A stretch of 62,556 nucleotides of DNA, counting the filler, from Porpidia crustulata (taxonomy: Eukaryota), in NCBI GenBank assembly GCA_964255105.1. It is 10 parts of 10 records of this genome, joined end to end, with 100 filler letters (N's around TTAATTAATTAA, not from the genome) between each part and the next. Parts side by side here need not be neighbours in the genome. Positions count along the whole stretch, not along the records: positions 6,271 to 12,440 come from CAXUWE010001614.1; 9 more parts are not named here. One strand, written 5' to 3'. The translations under genes were made by a program, and so were the position numbers. This document shows positions 8,941 to 54,647 of this stretch, piece after piece. Numbering within the stretch: the first letter of the stretch is position 1; each line of letters opens with the position of its first letter. The notes beneath the pieces were generated by a model, which worked only from the letters and a program-made list of their open reading frames with translations, was not told the DNA's origin and searched no databases.

Positions 8941-10396
8941 GGTGCTACAAGTTTGCAGGAATGGTGATTTGGTAGTAAAGGATAATGAGGTCGATGTGTA
9001 ACAGAAGTCGAGAAATCAACAGAAAGAGACGTCATTTGGGTATGGCAATCTAGGCGTGGCCTTGATTTGCATGGTCGAAGTACCTATGACGCACGCGGGG
9101 TTGGCGTTATCAACATAAATCATGCATGCTAATTAGGAACGTTTCCTATCGAAGTCTTTTCGACGATTTCAATGCTTTAATCTCAGAAATGCACCGTTCA
9201 CACTCTACCGCTACCGTTACTTTACTAGTGTTCCTTATTGAAAGAGTCTCTTGGCCGGACTGGTAGCCAACAGTGCTTGGTTACTTCAAATTGGGCGCGG
9301 TGTCGACAATACGTTTCAAGAAGAACATTTTTGTTGCCGTCGCGTTCTCTGCTTCCCAAGTTGCTCATTCTATCAAGGAGACTTCGGGATCAAATTCCGC
9401 CTCACGTAGTAGAAGCAACGGACTCGACCATTTTGTTTCTTCGTTCCAATAATTTACTCTGATAACATTTGGCGTCTACGAAATCCAGAGTTTCGGCAAA
9501 GCTTGTTGTTCTGGCTGGCGCGGATTGTCAACCCGATAACGGTTGCATGAGTAGTATAGTAGCATTCGGGGACGACGATTAATCCAGGTGCTTCTAATGC
9601 TGCAGTATATTGGAGAGGTTACGATATATATGTGAAGAAGCTACTCGTTTTCACCCCTCAACGGATCGTCTGGCCTAGGGTTAGGTTCACTTTCATCAGT
9701 TTGAGCCTAGTTGACCCGTTTAGGGGTTTAACGCGTTTTTAGAGTGACACTTGATAGTATTAGACTAAGTACGTTATATATCTCAACCTCTGAACTGGAT
9801 GTGGACGTTTTGGTCGTTAGCTTCTTCAGAAAATGCTGGCAGCACTAGCTTTACTATATCGCGTGGTAGAGCAATGGAAATAACTAACGAGGAATTCATG
9901 GATCACATGAGTCGATGCCTACAAGGCAAAGCTGACAGCTAGTATACGAGATTCACGTTCGAAATCGAAGATCGTCCTCCCAGTTCGGGCCAGTATGCCG
10001 ACCCCGGTACTCCATCATAACGCTATACAACCACGCTGTGACTGAGATTGAACTGTGCCCATGTAGAACGTGCACGACGCGCAACTTGAGACATGAAGAA
10101 ACATGGATTGCCTCTTGTGGGAATAGAATGACATCGCGACTTCGTGTATCTCTAGCACTTTGACCTCGTCGTTTCTTGTTGGTGAACTTTTCTTTGAACG
10201 CCCTACACTGCCCTTGATTGAGATAGTAGGCGATTCAGTGACTCCTGATCTACGAGTCTGTAGTCGTCTTCGTTGAAATCTTCCTTTTCGTCCTTCTAGA
10301 TTTTGACACTCTCTAAATTCCCCAACCTCCAAAATTCAGAGTACAATTTCCAGAATAAGCTTTGCTGCAATTTATACCGTCGAAGCAACATACACG

Positions 10397-11942
10397 ATGC
10401 TTCTCGTCCGTTTGTGGACTATCTATTCGAGCCTCATCATCACTTCAAGCAAAGTGCTGAAGCTGGACTTTACAAAACAATCCGTCGCCAGCACTTTACT
10501 CAAGCGCCGGAGCCTCGAGCTTCCTATGTACAACGATATCTTCCATCAGGTAAGTTTCAAGCCTTCACCCATCTGGTAGTTGACCCCGTCTACAGAAATA
10601 TACCATCAATGTCACAGTTGGAACACCGCCGCAGCAAGCTACTCTCCTCCTTGATACCGGTAGCAGCGATACGTGGCTCCCAGCAATGGACTCATCAGGA
10701 TGTTCACCCATGTGCCCGCCTGGCTTTTTCGATGCTACCAAGTCCTCTACCCTTTCACCTACAGACTTGATATTTAATGTCTCTTATGGTGTCTCCACAT
10801 CCGATATTCTTCTCGGAAAATACTTCCATGACACTCTTCGACTTGGCAAAGCAGTGATACCGAACATGACAGGTACATCTCTTTTCATCTATAGATCAGC
10901 GCCTATGGGAGAAAGGCTGCCTTGTAGAACTCAAATTTCCAATTCTTCGCCTTCACATTACGCTTGCTAACTGATGATCCGCAGTGAGTACGTTTTGCCT
11001 TATCCAATTCTATAGGAGATTTACGGTGAAAAAATGCACGATATGCTAGCAGACCCGACTATTCCCACTACTAATAGCTAATCGAACCCATGCGTCTAGA
11101 TGGCAGTAGTAGACCTCACCAAAGTTTACTTCGATGACGGGTTTTCTGGCATCATAGGTCTCGGCTCTCCCCTCCAGGAAGCAATCGTCAACGGTAGAAA
11201 TCGCAGCGCAATATACCCGACTATGTACGATGAGCTTCAAGCGCATGGTTACACTGCCAGACGAGCTTTCAGCATCTGGCAAAACAGTATATCCTCTGCA
11301 ACAGGCCACATAATTTTCGGCGGTATTGATACAACCAAGTACTGTGGCAAGCTCGTTAGCGTGCCGGTTATCAAGACCTCACGCGGGGACTTCAGTGACT
11401 GGAGGATTGTCCTGACCTCTGTTACCCGCTACTCAACTGGTCATGGCTATCGCAAAGAAGAAATTTTGACTCCACCAGCTTTCAATATCACCGTGGTCTT
11501 AGATAGTGGTTCGCCGAATATGTACTTGCCCTGGATCCTCGCCCAGAACATCTCCTCGGCTATGAACGCCTCCACACATTTCGGATTTCCCTATGTCAGC
11601 TGTGCGGAGGGCAAAGTCAAATCCACTATCGAGTTTGGCTTCGGGGGTAACTCAGGACCGCGCATCAGTGTCCCTTACTCTGCGCTGATCTACCCATTTG
11701 GAGCTCCCTCTAACATTGGCCCAGTGACCGCTGCTGACGGCACGCCGCTGTGCTATCTCGGCCTTATCGGCTGGAACGTACCGTTGATTCTCCTCGGCGA
11801 TACTTTTATACGCTCCGCATACGTGGTCTATGACGTCGACAATCTTCAAGTTGCCATGGCGCAGGCCAAGTATGATGTTGATGGCGAGAACATTGTGGAG
11901 ATTCCGGCTGGCACAGGCCTCCCAGGAGTCAAACGTCAGTAG
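10397..11942 (+). CDS. Secreted pepsin-like (A1, yapsin-related) aspartic protease
   Basis: Signal peptide, KRR pro-site, catalytic LLDTGSSD and VLDSGS, LLGDTFIRSAYVVYD. Introns at 10550-10595 and a complex intron at 10872-11099. Confidence 0.9.
10872..11099 (+). other. Putative [D1,2] stwintron (intron nested within the donor site of an outer intron)
   Basis: G10872 + [GTACAT...GCTAAC...CAG, 10873-10984] + TGAGT...GCTAAT...TAG11099. Removing the inner intron rebuilds GTGAGT, and removing the outer intron joins PNMT to MAVVDL in frame. Confidence 0.75.
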
Positions 11943-12403
11943 AATGGCCATTTCTCACCTTGTAGCTATGGCAAGGCCTGGACTGGCAAGATTGTAAATA
12001 AAAAAGAAAATGTTTGTCTCAAAAGCTGTCATCCTGGAGGATTGCCCTATCAATCCTTCTCCATGGGAAAGTCATTTGGCAGTTTACTTCAAACCATTAA
12101 ATCAATTTTGTCGATCATAGGATTTTACGGAACGTCAGGCTGGTTTTTCTAACGACGGTCGGATACTGCCGGATCGACGGAGGGGTATATATATCCCAGA
12201 AACAAGTAAAAGCTTACAGGTATCAGACTTTTCTCATTCGTCTTATCAAAGTAAATACTCAAGATTCATATCGTCTTCTTCACGGCGTATTTCGTTACAG
12301 ATACTTCCTTAACTTTCCTTAGCATCCCCAGATAAGATTACCTGTGGCAAATTTTTCTTTCCCTTTCCCCACTCTCAATTCCCAATATACGAAGAAGCCC
12401 GTC

Positions 12404-12440
12404 ATGGCCGAACTGCCCAACCCCCCTTGGACCTTCCTCC
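12404..12440 (+). CDS. Possible first codons of a gene cut by the spacer (MAELPNPPWTFL)
   Basis: ATG in a GTCATGG context after a pyrimidine-rich leader. Too short to identify. Confidence 0.3.
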
Positions 12441-12540
12441 NNNNNNNNNNNNNNNNNNNNNNNNNNNNNNNNNNNNNNNNNNNNTTAATTAATTAANNNN
12501 NNNNNNNNNNNNNNNNNNNNNNNNNNNNNNNNNNNNNNNN
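12441..12540. other. Artificial contig spacer
   Basis: N44-TTAATTAATTAA-N44. Confidence 0.99.
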
Positions 12541-16054: not shown

Positions 16055-18377
16055 ATGAAGACATTCAAGACTCTTCTCGCTACCTTTTCTGCATTCTGCT
16101 GGCTAGCTCAAGCAGGCGTCATCCATCTTGACGTTACCAACAACGGTGACATCACTGTTGACATTGATTCAGGACCCCAAGACCTGCAAAGTGAGAACCC
16201 TTGCGTTGAAAGTGATGACAATCCATATCACCAGGTAGAGACTCAGCATACTATCTTTGATCAGTATGATGTCACTCTTCCGTACGAGGTCCATCGTGGT
16301 TTTCTCTCGGTAAGTCTGAACCTAGATTAAGGGTAAACTTCCTGCTGAAGATATGCAGGATGATAGCAGCTACGTAAAATTCAGCAACATCCCATTTGCT
16401 GAGCCGCCGGTGGGCCCACTACGTTTCAAAGCCCCAGTTCCTCCTCGAAAGAAGAGCAAAGATGTCAACCAAGGCTTAAAGGAACGTGTTTGCCCTCAGT
16501 ATCAAGTCGGCTGGGTGCCAGATGCTCTTAACTTTCTCAATTGCTACGCCGGGGCTCTGAATGAAACACAGTATTGTTCCTTCAAGGACAACTGGACTGA
16601 ACCCATTGATCCGAGCCGCTATTCGGGATTCGATGGAAGTGGTTCAAACGAAAAAGGCAATAGCCGTCCTTCCCCACCATTTCTGCTAGCTAAAATTTTC
16701 CAGCTGATGAAGATTGCTTGTTGCTCGACGTATTTATTCCTAAGTCAGTATGGGACAACAGAGCTGAAAGTAGGGTTCACGGCAAATTTGGTTATTTTCT
16801 GGTAGCTAAGTGTTGTCTAGAAGTACCTGTCGTGGCTTGGATCTTTGGTGGAGGGTACTCTATCCCTTTCTCTGTTTAGGAGTCTAGAAATCTGCTTATA
16901 GCACACAGCTACATCTTTGGCTGGAAAAGCCAAGCTGGCGGCCCTGAACCACTCCTCCAGGCCGCTAAAGAACAGAACAAAGACATTATTTACGTATGCT
17001 TCAAAGCCTTTTCTTCCTGCATACTGTTTACTGACCGGATGAGATAGGTAGCTATGAACTACCGACTTGGAGCCCTTGGCTGGTTAAATGGCCCTAGATT
17101 TATTAGTGAAGGGGGTACACCAAACGCCGGTCTTCACGATCAACGCCTCGCTTTGAGCTGGATCCAAGAGTATATTGGTCTCTTTGGAGGCGACAAGAGC
17201 AGGTGACAGTGACGTTTGTCGCTATTTTGTCTTATATCGACTAATCTTGATACCTAGTGTCACTGTCATGGGTCAGAGCGCTGGTGGTTCAAGCATTCTA
17301 CATCACATTGTTGCCGGTGCCGGTGCTGAAGAATTCAAACCCCAATTTTCGCAAGCGATCCTGCAAAGCCCGGCATTCTTCCCTGAAGGTGATCCGTTCT
17401 CGTCGGATGATGTCTATAACGAGTTCAAAGCTCGACTAGGTGCTCGCAGTGGCAGCCTTGACGATCTCCAGGCAAAGAGCCCTTTTGTGATCCAGATTGT
17501 CAATGCTCTTATGACCTATTACTCCGATTACGGATTATTCAAATTCGGGCCCAAGGTGGATGATGGATACGTACCGCGACTTCCAGGACAACTTCTGTTG
17601 AATAATACATATCATAAAGGTATACCGATGATACTTGGTCATACCTCCCTTGATGGACTTCTCTTCACGCCGCCTTGGATCCGGAGCGACCAGGCCCTCA
17701 GAGACTACATGCTTGACCTTTATCCAGCTACACCTGATACAGTCCTTGACACTATGAAGAAATACACTTATTACGGAATACCGGATAAAAAGGAAACCTT
17801 GGAGATAACCAAGATCAACGCCGTTTCTGATCTTTTAGACGACATTGCCGTCTCGTGCAACAATCATTATCTAACCAGCGCAGTCGTGAAAAATGACTCT
17901 ACTACTCCGATCTGGAGATATCTGTTCAGTGCCAGGCCGGCGATTCATGGGTCGGATGTGCCTTTCACCGTTCGTTCGCCCTTACCGCTCCTCTAACCGT
18001 CCAGCTTGCTCACCCAGTCTTAGTACTATCCGACCGAAGATCCACCTGCATTCGTCATCCCTAAAATGGCCAAATTCATGCAACAGAAATACGTCAACTT
18101 TATTTTGAATGGTAATCCGAACGGTGGCGAGGACCTGGTATGGCCAAGATACGAGGAAAAAGCACTCAAACCGTATCGATCCGTCATGAAGTTTGGCGAC
18201 CTCTTGCTTGGTAACTTCTCGTCCGTCATCACAGATCCAATGAAACATTATCGATGCGATCTTTGGCAGGACGCTCCATTCAGAGAACCCGACGACGAAT
18301 ATATGCCGGAGAAGCAGGGTCCTCACAACCAGTTGGAGCAGGTGATGCCGCCGCCTCTCGTGCTCCAAGGAGTATGA
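16055..18377 (+). CDS. Secreted type-B carboxylesterase/lipase (alpha/beta hydrolase), multi-intron
   Basis: Signal peptide, FSNIPFAEPPVGPLRFKAP, EDCLLLDVFIP, VVAWIFGGGY, VAMNYRLGALGWL, NAGLHDQRLAL, nucleophile GQSAG, catalytic His in AIHGSD. Confidence 0.9.
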
Positions 18378-33529: not shown

Positions 33530-35369
33530 ATGTCAAAACCAAGCTGGGAAGACGTTGCCAAGAAGGCTCAAGAACATCGGGATGCTAGTATCAAGCTTGT
33601 CAAGCCTGCAGTTCCTGATGTTCCGTCTGATTTGCCCTTGAATGTTACGGAGATCCCGAAATCCCTGCTCACCACAGAGGAAGTGACTATTACCGAGACA
33701 GCGGCAGAGGATCTTATATTTTCTCTTGCTTCTGGAAAGCTCAGTAGTACGACCGTGACGAATGCTTTCCTCCGCCGAGCGGCAATTGCTCAACAGCTTG
33801 TTAGTCATTTGTACATGCTTTCGTTTTCAGGAAAGCTAATACTTCAAGGATCTAGGTCAATTGTATTACTGAGCTCCTTCCTAAGAAAGCGTTAGCTAGA
33901 GCCAAGTATCTTGACAATTATTATGAGAAGAATAAGAAGCCTGTTGGACCCTTACACGGTCTCCCTATCAGTGTCAAGGAGCATGTTGGGATGAAAGGTC
34001 TGGGGCTAAACGCTGGATTCGTCAGCTGGTTCGACAAGAAAGGTGCAGACGACGCCCATCTACTCAAGATTCTCTGGAATGCAGGTTGCGTGTTCTATGC
34101 TCGGACAACCCAGCCGCAGACGTTGATGCATTTGGAGACTTCCAGTAATCTCTATGGAGTTACGGTCAATCCATTCAACCGTAATCTTACAGCCGGAGGT
34201 AGTTCTGGCGGAGAAGGTTCCTTGATCGGTTTACGAGGTAGCTGTCTCGGTATAGGGACCGACATCGGCGGATCCATCCGGAGTCCGGCAGCCAATTGTG
34301 GTCTCTATGGTTTCAGACCTACCAGCTACCGGCTTCCCACCGATGGATGGGCTTTGACGATGGATGGAGGGGAGCAAATAGTAGCCGTCATCGGCCCTTT
34401 GAGTACATCGCTAGAGGGAATAAAGCTGTTCATGAAGACGGTGATTGCGGCAAAGCCTTGGCTTGTGGAGTCCTCCTTAATACCCTTTCCCTGGAGAGAT
34501 CAGGAAAGCTACCTGGAGAAAGTAGGGGAAAAGAAATTGAAAGTTGGCGTCATTTGGGACGACGGGGTTGTAAAGCCCCATCCACCAGTAATTCGAGCTC
34601 TCAAGGAGGTGGTGGACAAGCTTAAGGGAGTACAAGGCGTCGAAATAATCAGCTGGAAACCGTACAAGCATGACGAAGCGTGGGAAATCATCGCTAGTCT
34701 GTACTTCTGCGATGGAGGTAGCGAAGAGAAGGAAGCAATTGAGGCATCCGGTGAACCGTATCGGCCATTATCAAATTTTATACTCAAAGACAACCCTCAT
34801 GTCAAACATCATAGCATCGAGGACGTATGGTACTGGACAACGAGACGTGAGAAGTATAGACGAGCTTATGCCAAGGCCTGGAATGATACTGCCATCAACT
34901 CTAACGAATATGGTGAGCCAGAAGGAATGGTTGATGTATTGTTGTGTCCCGTTGGGCCAGGTGCCGCGCCTCCCATCGATCATGCACAGTATTGGGGCTA
35001 CACTAGCCAATGGAATTTGCTAGACTATCCTGCCTTGGTGTTTCCTGTTTCCAAGGTGAACCCGGAAATTGATGTTATAGACAAAGGCTACAAGCCGATG
35101 AACGAGCAAGACGATTTCAACCATAAGCTTTGTTAGTCAAGCATGCGCTTCGTGAATGGGAAAATATGCTAATATGTGTTAGACGATCCCGAAGTATACA
35201 AAGGTGCACCAGTGTCATTGCAGCTCGTCGGACGTAGATACGAAGATGAAAAGGTCGGTGAATGTTTCCAAAGAGGGTTGCATAGAAATCTGACAGAGTA
35301 ACCTAGGTGATTGAAGCAATTGACTTCATCAAAAGCCAAATCAGTCTTCCCTTCGCCACCTTTGTTTGA
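33530..35369 (+). CDS. Amidase-signature family acetamidase (AmdS-like)
   Basis: MSKPSWEDVAKKAQEHRD, GPLHGLPISVKEH, GGSSGGEG, GTDIGGSIRSPA, YTSQWNLLDYPALVFP, PVSLQLVGRRYEDEK. 3 introns. Confidence 0.93.
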
Positions 35370-36199
35370 GGATGATCAATCTCAGGTGGCCTTCACCTAG
35401 AGTAACTTCATAGGATTTACCCATTGACTAGTTGGTATGGCTGGAAATTCCATGGCTTTAGATATCTGCCTCAGGATCCTCAGAACTTGGTCTAGCATAG
35501 ATACAGAGCTCGACATGAAGCTCGTCCATAATTTATCAACCTGGACCCATTGTGCGAAAATGACACATTGTAGCTGCATCAAGGGCTATCCGTAGAGCTC
35601 AGTGAAACAGTAGCTAAACAAGGCATCGACAACGTGGAATGTGAAGCCTCATCCTGACTCCAAACCGCCTTAGCCGCTTGCCATTCCGACGTCATTCAAA
35701 CATTCGTACAACAAGTAGGCTGTGAGGCTGCTACATGGCCTTTAGAGTAGTCGTTCAAGAGCCATCGAGACTCAAGTGCTAGTGTGCGTGACACGTTTCG
35801 GTTCTAATTGTCTGCGGCAGTTGATCAGCGGTTCCTGCAGGAACAGCACGGAAAGTGTCATAGTACACAGCCACACAGCCTGCAGCGCCGCAGTAGCGTC
35901 GTCATCGTGCAATGAATGTAGCCACGCTTAAATTCAAGATCATAATATGAATACATGGTGGAATACTCTCCTAACGTGAGTTTCAATGTACCGTATCACT
36001 CTGATGATTAGGGATAAGAGTGCTCTTAAAGTTCTTCTATGTGTTCCGCTTTCCGTCATTTAGTCTGGGAGGCACAATCTAAACCATTTCCTGAAACACA
36101 GCATCTGACACTACTCTGACTTACTTTCTCTCTCTATTTCTCTCTTCTTGTGTCTGTATCTGTCCATTCCTGTTCGTACATACTGCTGTTTAGCTCAAC

Positions 36200-37510
36200 A
36201 TGATTCTTCCGAGGTGCCTGTCGAGCGTGACAGTTCTGCTAGCAGCAGGGGCGTCATCTCATGGTAAACAGTCGTGTCGTCTTGGTTGCGATTTAGGATA
36301 CTAACGTCAACAGCGTTTGGTCTTCCACCCGATTCCTTGACGAGATATGATGCTACTATAGCATTCTCCGCTCTCGAAAGTCGGGCAATTCCCAATGCAC
36401 CAAAAGGCTATACCCCTGTGGGCGACAATTGTCCCTCCAAACGACCCACTATTCGCAGTGCGGCAGGCCTTTCACCAAACGAAACATCATGGCTAGAAAT
36501 ACGGCTCAACAACACAATCACACCCATGCGAGATTTCCTCGCAAGGCTCAACATCAGCGGCTTCGATGCCGCGTTTTACATCACGAATCACGCAAAAAAT
36601 GCAACCGCATTCCCTAACGTTGCTATCGCTGTCAGCGGAGGTGGCTACAGAGCCTTAATGACGGGAGCAGGAGCTGTTCAAGCATTTGATAGCAGGGAAG
36701 AAAATACAACCGCTACTGGTCATCTTGGGGGCCTGCTCCAGTCCGCAACATACCTCGCCGGGTTGAGTGGAGGCAGCTGGCTTGTGGGCAGTATATATGT
36801 CAACAATTTCACAACGGTCTCCACACTACAGAGCAATACCTCATCCACATGGGAGTTCCAGAACTCTATTTTCACTGGTCCAGCTCAGGGCGGTATCCAA
36901 TTACTGAATTCCGCGGACTATTTCAAGAATGTAGAGAATGCTGTTAGCGACAAGAAAGACGCTGGCTTCCCGACATCTGTAACGGATTACTGGGGACGTG
37001 CTCTTTCTTTCCAGCTGATCAATGCGACTGACGGCGGACCTGGCTACACATGGTCCTCTATTGCGCAAGATTCGACCTTTGCCCAGGGTAATGCTCCAAT
37101 GCCAATTATAGTAACCGATGGCCGTGCTCCCGGCGAGCAAGCGATCCCAACTAATACAACAGTCTACGAATTCAATCCGTGGGAGTTTGGAACATTCGAT
37201 CCAACCACTTATGGCTTTGCTCCCCTCGAATATCTAGGTTCCAACTTCTCAAATGGAATTATTCCAGCGAATGGAACATGTGTACGAGGCTTTGATAATG
37301 CCGGATACGTCATGGGCACCTCATCGTCGTTGTTCAATCAATTCCTCCTTCAGGTGAATTCGACCTCGATTCCTACCATAGCAAAGGACTTCGCCACCAA
37401 AATTCTCGGCTCTGTAAGCCAGGCGAACAATGATATTGCCGAGTATCCCAACCCGTTCTACGGTTACCACAACACAACCTCGCTCAACGCTCAATCCCAC
37501 ACTCTATCCC
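36200..37510 (+). CDS. PLB1: Secreted lysophospholipase / phospholipase B, 3'-truncated
   Basis: Signal exon MILPRCLSSVTVLLAAG, then IAVSGGGYRALM, AGLSGGSWLVGS, DYWGRALSFQL, YEFNPWEFG, FDNAGYVMGTSS. Confidence 0.93.
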
Positions 37511-37610
37511 NNNNNNNNNNNNNNNNNNNNNNNNNNNNNNNNNNNNNNNNNNNNTTAATTAATTAANNNNNNNNNNNNNNNNNNNNNNNNNNNNNNNNNN
37601 NNNNNNNNNN
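37511..37610. other. Artificial contig spacer
   Basis: N44-TTAATTAATTAA-N44. Confidence 0.99.
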
Positions 37611-42058: not shown

Positions 42059-43496
42059 TTATGGAACATGCTTTCCTTGTTTCTTCCTGGCTATCCAATG
42101 CGACGTTCTATAAATATTCTGCAACATACTTTCTGAATCCCGAATATAACCAGATCCGTCACTCCGAATTTCATGCTTCTCAATTTCGAACCCATATGAC
42201 CGCACCAGCATTAGGACCTCTTCGTCCGTGAACTCGAAACTACCAGGCTCTTCAATGCCTCTTCGTTCTTTCAGGCCGCCGCTGCGTCTCTCCTCGGTAG
42301 AACTCGAGAGTTCCCGATCCCCAAAGTGCCATAGCAGAGGCCCTAGATTGACCCACACGCCTCCCTCCTTTAAGCAATTGTGCACCGTCTCTATATACTT
42401 TATTAAATTCGGTGCTGTATCTATAAAATAGACCATCACAACTGCATCATACATTCGGTGATGCTGTGGATCGCCATACAAGATAATAAAATCCCCGGCC
42501 GTCATGGTCATTCTATCGACCGGTCGATGATCGATGGTAGCTACCGGTGTCATAAGATCACTTCCAGGATGGACATCGGGAATCTTAACCACTTTGAATT
42601 GCTGCTCCCTATTGACCAGATTGGAAAATTCTAGTACAAAAGGATAGAGATCGAATTGCTCGGCTCGGTCAGTGTGATTCAAAACCCAGCTGCTTGTTAT
42701 CAATTGGTGGTATGAAATTTCGTTTCCTTCGACAGTGTACCCTTTGTGGCAAAAATCATAGACAAGACGACCTAGGCCAGCTCCGGGTACAAGCACTTTG
42801 ATGTTACTTTTGTTCGGAATAGTATGAAAAGCTTCGCCTACATCTCGTAGCACGGGTTCGTAGCATGCACGTCGTTCATCAGCGCCTTCAGCACTCCAAT
42901 CACGATATAGTTGTCGGATAATCGTTTTGACCTTGTTCACATCCTGAGACTTCGCTGCGCCATGCCACTCCCAGGCTGGAGATTTTGCAGTAGGATCGAC
43001 GCCAAACAAGTGCAGACCAGTAGTAAGAATCTCCTGAGCGAGATCCCCATTGATATCGATAGTATCATCAACACGTTCTAAGTTCTTGAGAAGGTTAAAG
43101 GGAGGCGCGGCCAATCTCTGCCATTGTGCCGTTGGTAAGGCATAGAAGTTTTGGCGGCGGCGATGAGTCACGTTGAAGTGGGCAATTCTTCGATAGATGC
43201 TAAGTTACTGGATAGTTAGGCTGTAAATACGTGACCATCATACTAGAAATAAGGGAGAGACAGGAATGAGATTCACATGAACGTATGTATGTATTATAAT
43301 AGACATGACTGTACACAGAAAGCGCAGCCTGCAACGCAATTGAGAATTGGTCTAAATATAGAAACCACCTTCTTGATGTCCACTCTGTACTTGACACTCA
43401 CCGGAAAGAATCTAGAGCAGCAAACAAGACTCGTCTCTCCTCCGGATCTGCGAGAGGATCGTGGCCACCACTTAGATCTTCTGGCGCTAGAGACAT
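42059..43496 (-). CDS. Carnosine N-methyltransferase (N2227-like, class I SAM methyltransferase)
   Basis: Exon 1 MSLAPEDLSGGHDPLADPEERRVLFAALDSFR, then IRQLYRDWSAEG, VLVPGAGLGRL, EGNEISYHQL, YFIDTAPNLIKY, WVNLGPLLWHF. Confidence 0.9.
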
Positions 43497-45017: not shown

Positions 45018-46896
45018 TTAGATCGAAGACATAAAGTGATGACCGGCACGACGGTGCTTGGCGTGTCGCTTCTTCATGGTGAGTGAGCCTGACTTTGTGT
45101 AGATGCTCATTCTGGCAGGACCGCCACAGATCTCGGAGCTGTTGCCGTCGCACTTTGAGGTACACTCCCCGGCTTTCTCAGAACTATCTTTCAGAGCATC
45201 TCCACAAAAGCATTGGCCTCCATTCTCCAAACCGGCAATCTTCTTGCCCAGAACGTCGCAGCGCTGAACGCAGTTGGTTGCAGTGACGCCGTGGTCCGAC
45301 ATGGTGTGGGGATCATACTCAAATCTATCGTCGAGAGAGCGATGAGGGTTGATCAGGTCAGAGTAGCATCCGACTGCTTTCCAATCGCCAGACCCAGCCT
45401 TGATGCTTGCAGGGGTGAGACCTGACGGGGTGGCGTTTCCAGGCGATGCGGCGGTAGAGGATTCAGCAATAGATGCAGGGGCAGCTGCAAGAGTCGTGCC
45501 TCCAGGCGCAGTCGCGATAGGAGGAACTGGCGAGACTTTGTCGCTGACGGCTGTAAGGGGAGCTGAGGCTACAGTGGAAACCGGTGTGGATGATGCCATA
45601 GCCGTAGCAGAGGAAGCCATGGGTGCAGCTGAAGATGAGCCTCCTGACGAAGAATTACCAGAGCCGACAGTATCGGGGGACACAGATCCTCCGCCGTACA
45701 CGAGAGAGGTCTGGACGTTGGCACAATTCGTTTGGACGGTAGCCAGCTGAGGACCGGGCTGAATTGGGTTGCAGCCCGGAAGCGACATTCCAATATTGGC
45801 AAGAGGGGTTTTGCCACCGTCTTTTTGGTTGAAGTTGGCCAGGCCGACGTTCTCATTGACTGCGGGCTTCGAAACTCTACAATCATCCGTCTCTGTATTG
45901 GAACGAATTCCAGCAGCGCCAAAGCACCCGGGCCCGTCAAGACCAGCTCCGTCGCCAATGGTGCAGGTCTTCATCGCTTGTCCCAGAACACCGGGCTTCC
46001 ATCCAGCCAACTGATGAGGTTAGTCTCATGCATTTGTAAAGAAATATACTCGGGAATTAGGGACTTACGAAATCCGCGTGGAATCCGAAACCGGTGGGAT
46101 CACCTTGAGCCAGGACCCATGGCACATCATTGGCACCATACTTGCCGTTGAACAAGGAAACATCGAGCCAGTACTCGGTAAAGATCTCGGGGAAGCGCTT
46201 GACGGTGAATCCAGTAGGACAGCCGGCCATACCATCTTTGTTGATGGGGAAAGCCATGTGAGCATGGGGGTCTTTGGGATTGAAGTCCTGACCATTCCAG
46301 CATGATGGGAATCGAATAGACGCAGCGAGGCCACCAAAATAGTTGGCATCACAATCCGTGAAGCCCTTGGGAAAGCCAGTTGCCTTGGGCGAATTGGCAT
46401 TGTTGTGGCATTGCCAATTCATCTGATTGCCGGCATTTCCAGAGGAACCATCATCAGAGCGCAGCATGGCATTTCCGGTGATCATGCGGAAACCGCTGGG
46501 AAATTCGCTCATTTCGAGGTCCGGTTGATTGTGTCCTGTACCGAATTTGTAGTAGACCTTATGAAACGGCTTCTCTGGAACACGAGTGAAGGAGCCATCC
46601 TTTGGGTCCTTGAAGTACAACGCAGGCATCCAGTAATTGCTCAAGTCGTCGCGAACCGGGTTCGTGCTGCAAGTTGACGTCTGAGTAGTGGCGAAGTCCA
46701 TTTCGGCCTGGAATGCATTACCACCGAGAACGGAGTGGACATGATTGGAGACCTTTCCAGCGGACAAGAGGGGGTCAACTCGCTCAAGAGCAACGGGCAT
46801 GCCCATGCCAATGGTGAAGAAAGCATCAGCATTGGTTCGGGCAGCAAGCGTAGCTAACAGCCCAGCAGTGGAGGCACGGCCATTGTTGAAGCGCAT
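45018..46896 (-). CDS. Secreted DUF1996 + Ser/Ala linker + WSC domain protein
   Basis: ERVDPLLSAGKVSNHVHSVLGG, DLSNYWMPALY, IRFPSCWNG, GDPTGFGFHADF/LAGW. WSC domain GCYSD...CVQRC...AGLENGGQCFCG...CDGNSSEICGG. Basic His-rich tail. Confidence 0.9.
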
Positions 46897-49393
46897 TTTT
46901 GCTAGAATTGTGATTGTTGTAGATTGTTGGTTATGGTTGGACAATTGTTTAGATATCAAATCTAAGATGGAAGAATCAAGGAGTGTGGTTCGTCAAGAAC
47001 GTATCAATGAACGACAGTAAGGATCGTGGTGCACCAGAGTCTCGGACTCTAAAGCGCAAGAAAAAGAGCGTACACGTAAACCGGAGGTGAGGTTGTAGAG
47101 GTTGAAGAAAGAGAAAGGAAAAGAAAGAGAACTTTGGTGTGGGATATGATGTGGATTATGAACAAGTGAATTCAACGCTAAGGCAGGTACACACACCCCG
47201 ATAAGATTAGGAAGAAAACGATTCACTTCGAGGTAAAACGAAACATTATCGACGCTAAGGTAAACAATCTCAGATTTCGTCGTGTTCTATTACAGAATTG
47301 CAAGTTTTACGCTCGGTTAGATGGTTAGTGCATAGTTAGTGGTAGTATTGAAAAATTGGATGTTGAAATTGGGCTTTGTGAATCTACAGGAGGAGGCCAA
47401 GCGCCTGATCTCGGCATTCTGAAACGATGACCATCACCATCCACCCTCACCCCCTCTTCTCGATCGGGATCATTAGTGCAATGTAGAAAGCACCAATCCA
47501 TCTTAGTCAGGTACAAATCCCTCCTGAGTTTCAGTTCAGATTAGCTTACTTAGCCGTTGGCCGCTAATCGAGGCGCTCAATGGTAGTCTGACAGTCTGAC
47601 AAATTTGCTCTAATGTTTCTCGTATCTCATGATTGAGTGGCTCGTCCGGGTAGAATTCAGTTGGCATTGGTAGGTGGGGAGTGTTGGCCGTTTGAGATCT
47701 TCCAGCGACGAGGCCAAGTCGCACACTCCTCTTCTTCCCTATTCCCTATGAATTCCTCGCTATTTACCGAAAGGTGCCCCCGCCCCCTTCTTCGTGCAGA
47801 TGTGAAGTCACCATCCTGATCCGTCGGTCGAGGCGTCCACTACGGACAGTGTCCGCATGCCACATGCTACTGACTCCTCGCAACCATTTACGACCGGTCC
47901 AATTGCGCCACAGAAAAGCTTCAATTGGTTGTTCCATCAGCTTTTTCCCCTTGGGCGAAACGCTGACTGCCAAAATGTCGGAACAGCGGGACGCCACCTT
48001 TGGATGTTGACAGCCGAGGCCGAATCACCATCTAGCTCTGTCTGCAGGCTGCAGGGGAACGATGCAGCATTATCGATAAATGATAAGTCATTATTGTCAT
48101 TGCAGGATAAGCTCGTCCCATGCAGATTACCTGTCATCTCCCAGTCCCAGTGCGTCTTTGTACTACGTGTTCTTTGACCATGCCACCGTGCCTCCGTACT
48201 TCCTCGCCTGTGCCTCGGTGGAATCTCAGTGAAACAACACTTGACTGAATAACAATGACTGATAAAGTTTGGTGGTGGTAATGATGATGCCGATAATGAT
48301 GACACGGCGGTCTAGAGCGGAGAATGAATGGGAAATACTAGTACTGTAGTGTGATTCACCCCGATGAAAGCGCACCATTCGTGGACGATGGCGGGTGGGC
48401 GGCAACCGAATTCTGAACAGACCCCTTACGTTCGACCACCTATAATCTCATCGTCAGACACGCACAGACAAAAACCGCCTGTCGGTACCAATCGTACTTG
48501 ACCGAAGGATCCATTCTCATGTTGGTCTCCGCTAGCAAAATTGCTATCCTGACGCGCGGTTTCCGGCGTTGGCGGGCTGAGGCTTATTGGTAAAGCTTCA
48601 ACGATGGCCAATTCGCCAACATTATTCTAATAAACTCTTGGATGTTGGATACCACCCTGCTCAACTTTCTTTCTTTCTTTCAACAAGCAGGCGATGTCGC
48701 TTGTTCTTCAAGACTCGGGTCTACAATGTATATATTTTCATTCAATTATCGATACTGCCTTCACAGTCAGCATTTTCAATTGGCACTAGAGTAGTATTTG
48801 CTACGAAGCCGGCCTTCCAAGACATGTGCACATCATGGTTTCGGAAAGCAGAATTCGAAGATCATTGTTCGCTGGTCACGGTCTGAATAATTGACGCTGC
48901 AGGCACAAAAGACGAAGCATTGAAAAAGTAATGATGGACTGCGTGCGCCATCATCTCTGAGACAAGATATTGAATTGTATGATAGTAAATGAACATATGC
49001 AATATTAGACGGGTGTGGCTACTAAGTCTCATGGCAATTGAGACAAGTCAAGTCCTAACCGTTCATGTACTTTACACACCTAAAGCCGTAGAGCAACATC
49101 TTCGATGTAGAAGATTGCATTGTCGATGACCTGGCACCATGACCACAAGTCACTGCAACTTGATCCCCAGGATGTGAGACATGGTGATACCTGCCCGAAT
49201 GCAGTATAGCTTATCTCGCTTGTTCCTGGGGAGAGCTTCCAATGATTGTCAACAAGGACTTCCGATTGCCATATATGGACATGCGACGACACGATGATTG
49301 ACAGTACTTTCTTGTACCCCGGGCTACATGGAATCCTATACATATAAGAAAGATAGCTCAAAGCTTGCGTGAGACAGATTTACCGGAGATAGG

Positions 49394-53151: not shown

Positions 53152-54647
53152 ATGAAAATTAGGAGTTTTGCTGCTTGCACAGCAGCATTTCTAGTCGCAT
53201 CATCCAGCGCTCTTTTCCTGGTTGAGCGAGGAGATGCTTCGCCTGCTGTCGTTGGGCTTAACATCCAGAGGAAGCACATCCTTGATCCTGCGAAGAGAGA
53301 CCTTCAACGGCGGCAGCAAGTTGTTTCGGAGACCTTAGACAACCTGGTAAGCTTCTACTGTCATCCATTCACTCTAGCACCTATATTAATCTACCTTAGG
53401 GAACATTATACTTTGCCAACGTCACCTTAGGAACCCGCGGTCAACCCCTTCGTCTACACATTGATACCGGTAGCAGCGATCTCTGGACCAATGCTCCGAA
53501 TTCAAGACTTTGTCAGCAGAATCAAGAACAATGCGCTATCTCCGGCACGTACGATTCCACCCAGTCAAGCACCTACAAGCTTGTGTCAACCGACTTCAAT
53601 ATATCCTACGTTGATGGGTCGGGTGCGCTGGGTAATTACGCCACGGACACGCTGAATATCGGTGGTCAACAATTACAGGGTCTCCAATTTGGCATTGGAC
53701 TACGATCGAGCTCTCCAGAAGGGATTCTTGGCATTGGCTACACAAGTAATGAAGTCCAAGTAAACCGGAATAATAAACAAGCCTATCCCAATGTTCCCCA
53801 ATTCATGGCGGACAATGGCTTGATCAAGTCGAATGCGTACAGTCTTTGGTTGGATGATCTGGAGGCCAATAGTGGATCGATTCTCTTCGGCGGAGTCGAC
53901 TCGGATAAGTTTCACGGAACGCTTGGAACCTTGCCTATCCAGCAAGCTTTTGGAGCGTTCACTGAATTCGTGATTACCTTGAGTGGAGTCAGTACCACTG
54001 TCAATGGCAAGACTCAGACTCTATCGCAAGATTTGCCCACTCCAGCGCTTCTGGACTCGGGCAGCAGCCTGACCTATCTTCCAAACAATTTAATAAATGC
54101 CCTTTACGGCGCCTGGAACGTACAATACGATAATCAGCAGCAGGTAGCAATTGTCGACTGTAACCTTGCTAATTCGAAAGATACGGTCGATTTCACCTTC
54201 AGCTCACCCAAGATCAGTGTCCCTGCCAGCGAGCTTGTTATTCCTGCAGGCACAGACCAACAGGGGAACATCATTTGTATTTTCGGCATCAACCCGGCTG
54301 ATGGAACCACGCCTGTATTGGGCGATACCTTCATCCGCAGTGCGTATGTCGTGTACGACTTGGCCAACAATGAAATATCCCTCGCGCAAACCAATTTCAA
54401 CGCGACTACGAGCCACGTCCTTGAAATTGGTACTGGCAGCAATGCTGTTCCAAGTGCATCAGTGGTCCAAAATCCGGTACTGGCCTCGCCGTCCGCAACC
54501 GGCGGCGCCAGGATCGCTCCGGTTACGGCCACCGGCACAGGCAGTAGCTCGAAGCCCACAAGTACAAAGTCCGCAGCGCCTTCCATTCGGATTTCATACT
54601 TTGCACTCCTGGGACTCAGCGGCATGGCTGCACTAGCATTCAGATGA
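53152..54647 (+). CDS. Yapsin/OpsB-like aspartic protease, probably GPI-anchored
   Basis: Signal peptide, KR sites, HIDTGSSDLW, LLDSGSSLTYLP, LGDTFIRSAYVVYD, Ser/Thr linker and hydrophobic tail (KSAA...FALLGLSGMAALAF). One intron at 53347-53399. Confidence 0.93.

Follow-up and report, generated by a model that had tools for sequence, protein, structure and literature searches.

Stwintrons (spliceosomal twin introns) of the [D1,2] type have been surveyed most closely to the present case in Hypoxylon sp. CO27-5, where 117 were reported together with 1413 more in 19 related genomes, and where 81 uniquely occurring [D1,2] stwintrons are distinguished (Fekete et al., 2022, PMC9024468). In that survey conservation in orthologues was used as comparative verification, and the search relied on a motif, Model A, all 24 donors of which carry G at +5 and which limits the distance from donor to branch to 80 nt (PMC9024468). 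A second well-described case is the [D1,2] stwintron of lipS, a putative lipase gene of Aspergillus nidulans and A. niger, which is old, is reported across Eurotiomycetes, Lecanoromycetes and Leotiomycetes, and whose splicing intermediate was demonstrated by RT-PCR (Flipphi et al., 2017, PMC5639578). The sister (propagating) stwintrons of Hypoxylaceae and Xylariaceae are similar in sequence to one another, multi-copy and internally symmetrical, and occupy species-specific positions (PMC8469720, PMC12403724). Finally, alternatively spliced [D1,2]/[A2,3] stwintrons also consist of a nested pair starting with GGU, and require that the downstream exon begin with a G (Fekete et al., 2017, PMC5587772; PMC5639578). 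In a full-text search, none of the papers that mention stwintrons also mentions an aspartic protease or a peptidase, protease terms are absent from the main texts of PMC9024468, PMC12403724 and PMC5639578, and no A1 protease was found in Table S1 of PMC9024468, the text of which is possibly incomplete and which contains only an S53 peptidase.

We analysed a stretch of 62,556 nt of the Porpidia crustulata assembly (hereafter the window), whose + strand encodes a pepsin-like (A1) aspartic protease between positions 10397 and 11942. Exon 1 (10397..10549) opens with the ATG at 10397 and provides 51 codons, with a hydrophobic N-terminus and a C-terminal end reading ...YNDIFHQ. It is followed by an ordinary phase-0 intron of 46 nt (intron 1, 10550..10595, GTAAGT...CAG) and by exon 2 (10596..10871), which provides 92 codons, includes the first catalytic motif (DTGSS) and ends in phase 0 with ...VIPNMT. 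Exon 3 (11100..11942) starts with MAVVDL, contains the second catalytic motif (DSGSP), and comprises 280 codons plus a TAG stop; no internal stop interrupts the translation of the resulting model. The exon 1/2 junction, ...HQ|(K/R)Y... in general and HQ|KY in the window, agrees with four continuous homologues (P0023, P0026, P0036 and P0039). Membership in the A1 family (PF00026) is indicated by both lobes, exon 2 matching positions 1-88 of the Pfam profile (E 8.5e-17) and exon 3 (11100-11939) positions 105-315 (E 3.1e-29), and by the presence of both catalytic D-T/S-G motifs in the translation.

The remainder of the window has the ordinary gene content of a fungus, with Pfam matches to RIX1 (ribosome biogenesis; 1-1845), a carboxylesterase fragment (17157-17996), an amidase adjoining a lysophospholipase (PLA2_B; 33856-37566), and a pair formed by DUF1996 and a WSC domain (45018-46992). 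A run of N at about 12440-12540, just downstream of the protease gene, appears as X in all six frames. On the - strand, 42059-43204 is an open reading frame for a carnosine N-methyltransferase (PF07942), whose nearest named relatives belong only to lichen-forming Lecanoromycetes and show 54-60% identity (Letharia columbiana at 60%, then Alectoria, Lignoscripta, Psora, Stereocaulon, Lasallia and Xylographa), with unnamed relatives reaching 72%. This neighbouring gene makes a lichen-forming Lecanoromycete the most likely source of the window. A second A1 aspartic protease lies at 53400-54647 (+) as one open frame of 415 codons that matches PF00026 over its full profile length (E 2e-72); at its C-terminus, a Ser/Thr-rich stretch and a hydrophobic tail look like a GPI-anchor signal, and it has no intron at the position discussed below.

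The second intervening sequence of the first protease gene, from 10872 to 11099, is 228 nt long, a multiple of three, with GG as its first and AG as its last bases. We consider it very probable, from its sequence and that of its relatives, that this interval is a [D1,2] stwintron, as an earlier note on this DNA had proposed; the proposal is supported here by the alignment of the protein family, by an enumeration of reading frames, and by the same layout in three further orthologous lineages. The final full codon of exon 2, ACA (10869-10871), is followed by G10872 and by GTACAT (10873-10878). The interval therefore opens with the 5'-GGU of [D1,2] stwintrons, G10872 standing directly before the internal GT, and this single base is both the first G of a split external donor and the -1 G of the internal donor context CAG|GTACAT.

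The internal intron (10873..10984, 112 nt) is a complete U2 intron as these stwintrons contain, with donor, DYTRAY branch, HAG acceptor and a length of at least 42 nt. Its donor, GTACAT, deviates at +5, where it has no G, and the CAG| of the exon context would presumably add U1 pairing. The internal branch element GCTAAC (10966-10971) places its A10970 at 14 nt from the 3' end, and the internal acceptor CAG (10982-10984) is directly followed by TGAGT (10985-10989), an instance of the U2-R-W-G-Y pattern, such that CAG|TGAGT yields GTGAGT once joined to the split G. The rest of the external intron (10985..11099) is 115 nt long, or 116 nt with G10872, its TGAGT completing the donor GTGAGT, and it has a branch element and an acceptor of its own: GCTAAT (11077-11082), with A11081 at 18 nt from the end, and TAG (11097-11099), after which exon 3 begins with ATG GCA GTA at 11100. 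Every coordinate in the earlier note (ACA, G|GTACAT, GCTAAC, CAG, TGAGT, GCTAAT, TAG and ATG) proved exact when re-read in the sequence. It had also set aside an [A2,3] route, and rightly so, since this route is closed by the A at 11100.

Two features of the internal boundary deserve mention. The genomic DNA already reads GTGAGT at 10984-10989, which every [D1,2] layout entails. Moreover, a GAG at 10986-10988 followed by TACGT forms a second possible internal acceptor, which could serve as a weaker alternative to the CAG; its use would rebuild GTACGT and lead to the same mature mRNA. GTACGT is also the donor rebuilt in the most divergent orthologue discussed below (L008).

Splicing of the interval would proceed in two steps. 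In the first, the spliceosome would remove the internal U2-type intron 10873-10984 (CAG|GUACAU ... GCUAAC, with A10970 ... CAG), joining G10872 to UGAGU so that a consensus donor ACA|GUGAGU arises in an intermediate reading ...ACAG|TGAGTACG.... In the second, the external intron of 116 nt would be removed through the branch GCUAAU (A11081) and the acceptor UAG at 11099, giving the junction ACA|AUG and a protease of 423 residues reading ...VIPNMT-MAVVDL.... The reverse order would not be possible, as the external donor is formed only by excision of the internal intron. Both this order and the intermediate are suggested by the anatomy of the interval and by the RT-PCR carried out on other [D1,2] stwintrons (PMC5639578).

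Frame arithmetic agrees with removal of the whole interval. Taking out 10872-11099 leaves a coding sequence of 1272 nt with one terminal stop, whereas one-step splicing from the obvious donor (10873-11099) leaves 1273 nt, which is not divisible by 3 and contains 13 stops, beginning at residue index 155, some 12 codons beyond the junction; the frameshift that the earlier note had predicted for this route is thus borne out by computation. We then enumerated single GT/GC-AG introns with donors in 10780-10975 and acceptors in 10990-11200, and none of them joins ...NMT to MAV.... The sequence ...VIPNMT is retained only with the 10873 donor combined with AGs inside exon 3 (11106, 11109, 11112 and further ones), each at the cost of at least the M and the A; the in-frame single introns from this donor include 10873-11106, 10873-11109 and 10873-11112. 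Single introns from the donors 10854 (GTGATA), 10851, 10791, 10899, 10962 and others delete or add several residues relative to the family and were discarded. The nested [D1,2] pair is the only canonical GT-AG solution that yields the junction ACA|ATG.

The enumeration also confirmed the in-frame alternative with the protein ...NMT-VVDL... that the earlier note had pointed out, namely a plain single intron of 234 nt from 10873 to a competing CAG at 11104..11106, 7 nt downstream of the external acceptor. Here the internal branch, the internal acceptor and the TGAGT would all be due to chance. Such an intron requires one reaction only, from a donor that every model uses anyway, and its product, with a junction reading ...ACAG|TAGTAG..., stays in frame up to one terminal stop; equivalent introns can be drawn in two orthologous loci, L001 (2768-3007) and L007 (2770-3007). 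It would have to skip, however, a consensus GCTAAC/CAG pair as well as the first AG after the distal branch, and it loses M and A. Removal of GTGAGT(10984)...TAG(11099) as a first step was considered too, and is taken as part of this single-intron reading: it leaves ...CCGCA|ATGGCAG, a joint without AG, and could be completed only at the CAG at 11106, with the same shorter product.

What the mature protein should look like can be judged from its family. Of 121 proteins, the 71 homologues with a length of 355 aa or more were aligned together with both candidate proteins; the other 50 were shorter, being mostly fragments or last-exon ORFs. Use of the simple intron 10873-11106 would remove two columns, which are both filled in 70 of these 71 homologues, one row being gapped, and are occupied by MG in 47, LG in 6, IG in 5, VG in 4, VA and FG in 2 each, and LA, KG, FA and MA in 1 each. 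When M and A are kept, no gap is needed between IPNMT and GIIGLG to align the window protein with the full-length relatives nearest to it. In relatives without an interruption the coding sequence continues across the junction point, as in locus L010 (...IPHHPVALVEV...), in the homologue P0010 (...PNMTLAIANV...), and in the second A1 protease of the window (...LQFGIGL...). The filled columns, the read-through relatives and the gapless alignment together require the mature junction ACA|ATG, and therefore a removed interval that starts with GG; only removal of the whole GG...AG interval restores both the frame and a protein consistent with the family. We therefore regard the single 234-nt intron as improbable, although the form shorter by two residues may occur as a minor isoform in the window gene and in L001 and L007.

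Gene calls among the relatives bear the trace of the same position. Among the 14 closest ones (P0001-P0014), 12 are prokaryote-style ORF calls that start at the M of exon 3, which is what would be expected if their genomes were interrupted at the position of the stwintron. The first residues of P0010 (385 aa, 60% identical), MLQ, look as if a prokaryote-style caller had translated the 3' end of intron 1 (...CAG), and its source seems to have kept intron 1 and to be without the stwintron.

We then scanned metagenome contigs with an alignment of the exon-3 relatives and obtained 11 loci. Seven of them (L001-L006 and L009, hereafter the L001 group) comprise three sequence variants and show 69% identity, while identity to the window protein is 67% for L007 and 46% for L008. 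In the L001 group, L007 and L008 we found an intervening sequence at exactly the same position as in the window, and an intron also occupies the position of intron 1 in L001, L007 and L008. The earlier note had suggested a comparison of orthologues, and all of these carry the same nested layout: ...AC(A/C) G|GTAC..., a branch, YAG|T(G/A)(A/C)GT, a second branch, TAG, and a phase-0 exon starting AT(G/C) GC. Internal and external introns measure 112 and 122 nt in the L001 group, 111 and 121 nt in L007, and 51 and 67 nt in L008. The window and L007 share the internal donor GTACAT, for which the L001 group has GTACCC; the internal acceptor context is TAG|TGAGT in L001 and L007 and TAG|TACGT, rebuilding GTACGT, in L008. 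Both position and layout are thus kept among orthologues. When exon-2 read-through ORFs of orthologues were checked for a GGT boundary, one of the three candidates matched.

Across the window, L001, L003, L006 and L007, the equivalent of G10872 is invariant, and it is present in L008 too; the elements that remain invariant within an otherwise diverged intron are GGTAC, CT(A/G)ACT, AGTGAGT, GCTAA and TCTAGATGGCAGTAG, the base preceding the internal AG varying between C and T. A plain single intron leaves the invariance of AG|TGAGT and of the internal branch unexplained. Because the window, the L001 group and L007 are closely related, they weigh less than three independent observations would.

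The strongest test comes from L008, whose intron sequence, apart from this layout, differs too much to be aligned. Here excision of GTACGT...GCTGAC...TAG rebuilds GTACGT. The competing CAG at 11104-11106, conserved in L001 and L007, is absent from L008, which has no counterpart of the single intron 10873-11106, there being no AG for about 80 nt past the start of exon 3. From the L008 donor at 382 (GTACGT), the only in-frame one-step acceptors are at 580 and 601, with a loss of at least 27 residues that include the GLG motif, and every other single intron adds 7-11 or deletes 6-7 residues, so that no single intron gives a protein consistent with the family. The external branch element of L008 is only near-consensus (CTTAAC), a TCTGAC lying too close to the acceptor. 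The same locus has DIGST rather than DTGSS as first catalytic motif, at about 160-175, and may encode a variant or inactive protease.

The orthologues bear equally on the possibility of an artefact or of decay, that is, of an assembly error that added a G at 10872/10873, or of a pseudogene whose intron is no longer spliced in frame. A GG start is indeed the look expected from a one-base insertion beside a plain GT donor. A Logan contig (6099 nt) of X1, the one public run found to cover this stretch, is identical to the window over 10300-12050, with 0 differences, 0 gaps and no joints; being unspliced DNA and probably derived from the same source data as the window, it excludes an assembly slip only. 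GGT is found at the start of the interval in ten of ten orthologous loci, which come from separate assemblies and represent six distinct sequences and four lineages. Both exons, moreover, are open, score as PF00026, and retain DTGSS and DSGSP. An artefact or a decayed gene is accordingly very improbable.

The [D1,2] layout also exceeds what chance would produce. We shuffled the interior of the intervals with dinucleotides preserved, keeping the first 7 and last 30 nt fixed, 20000 times each, and a relaxed [D1,2] layout recurred in only 60, 49, 60, 47 and 60 of these shuffles for the window, L001, L003, L006 and L007, respectively. Over the two strands of the 62.5-kb window, with 1772 GGT sites (922 + 850), the relaxed pattern has a single match, at 10872. 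The real sequence of L008 fails this pattern, because its external CTTAAC misses the first degenerate position. The published Model A (PMC9024468) matched none of the six distinct sequences and no site in the window; it misses the window interval because the internal donor lacks a G at +5 and the gap from donor to branch, 87 nt, exceeds 80. Model A is a search heuristic and not a definition of the [D1,2] stwintron.

It may be asked whether more than one route is used, with two-step splicing leading to an active protease, 10873-11099 to a frameshift, and 10873-11106 to a protein shorter by two residues, so that the whole would form a checkpoint, leaky or regulated, on protease output. For Hypoxylon [D1,2] stwintrons, rare distal-site splicing with a frameshift and alternative (mis)splicing have been reported (PMC9024468), and both alternative products are possible in the window gene. 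Nevertheless, the sequence holds no pointer to regulation, and the predicted RNA fold is unremarkable: no unusual fold or symmetry was found in the interval, the minimum free energy being -41 kcal/mol, compared with an average of -44.8 for shuffled sequences (z = 0.88). We think it improbable that several routes are used in this way. In a bolder version of the same idea, the amount of active protease would be tuned by competition between two-step splicing, the frameshifting distal route and splicing to the CAG at 11106.

Returning to the [D1,2] stwintron as the preferred reading, its practical consequence lies in annotation. Automatic predictors cannot model an intron that starts with GG, and here would either disrupt the gene or choose the CAG at 11106 and so omit two conserved residues; a case with comparative support may therefore help to correct the annotation of the A1 protease family in lichen-forming fungi. 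It would also add one more instance for Lecanoromycetes, a class with few described [D1,2] stwintrons, and indicates that real candidates escape a published motif that demands G at +5 and no more than 80 nt between donor and branch. A more tentative possibility is that we are dealing with an old [D1,2] stwintron with an internal donor lacking the +5 G, common to a group of orthologues that probably belong to lichen-forming fungi and invisible to published motif models. Should such off-model stwintrons be common, the current census would be a clear undercount, and minor errors such as a missing conserved M-G/A pair would be numerous in automatically annotated genomes. Our view of how stwintrons work is left unchanged by this case.

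Comparison with the described systems places the interval within a well-known type. Like the uniquely occurring [D1,2] stwintrons of Hypoxylaceae (PMC9024468), it combines a 5'-GGU, a complete internal U2 intron, and a YAG followed by U-R-W-G-Y with a separate external branch and acceptor; in both cases the position is kept among orthologues, automatic predictors are blind to the structure, and splicing at the distal site causes a frameshift. It departs from them in its host gene, an A1 protease, in its organism, which is probably a Lecanoromycete rather than a member of the Xylariales, and in its internal donor without G5 and its 87-nt donor-to-branch gap, both outside Model A. With the stwintron of lipS (PMC5639578) it shares the type, the rebuilt external donor GUGAGU, and the branch elements GCUAAC and GCUAAU, whereas the lipS introns measure 52-57 nt against 112 and 116 nt here, the gene is a different one, and the intermediate demonstrated there is predicted in the present case. 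From the alternatively spliced [D1,2]/[A2,3] stwintrons (PMC5587772, PMC5639578), with which it has in common a nested pair starting with GGU, it is set apart by the A at 11100 in place of the G that they require. The sister stwintrons (PMC8469720, PMC12403724) have the same [D1,2] architecture; unlike them, the one described here occurs as a single copy in the window (beyond itself, the best match spans 30 nt at 90% identity), shows no unusual fold and has a position common to diverged orthologues, and it resembles the uniquely occurring rather than the propagating class. It is thus well supported as a further example of the already well-known [D1,2] stwintrons, and would be a new instance in an A1 protease gene.
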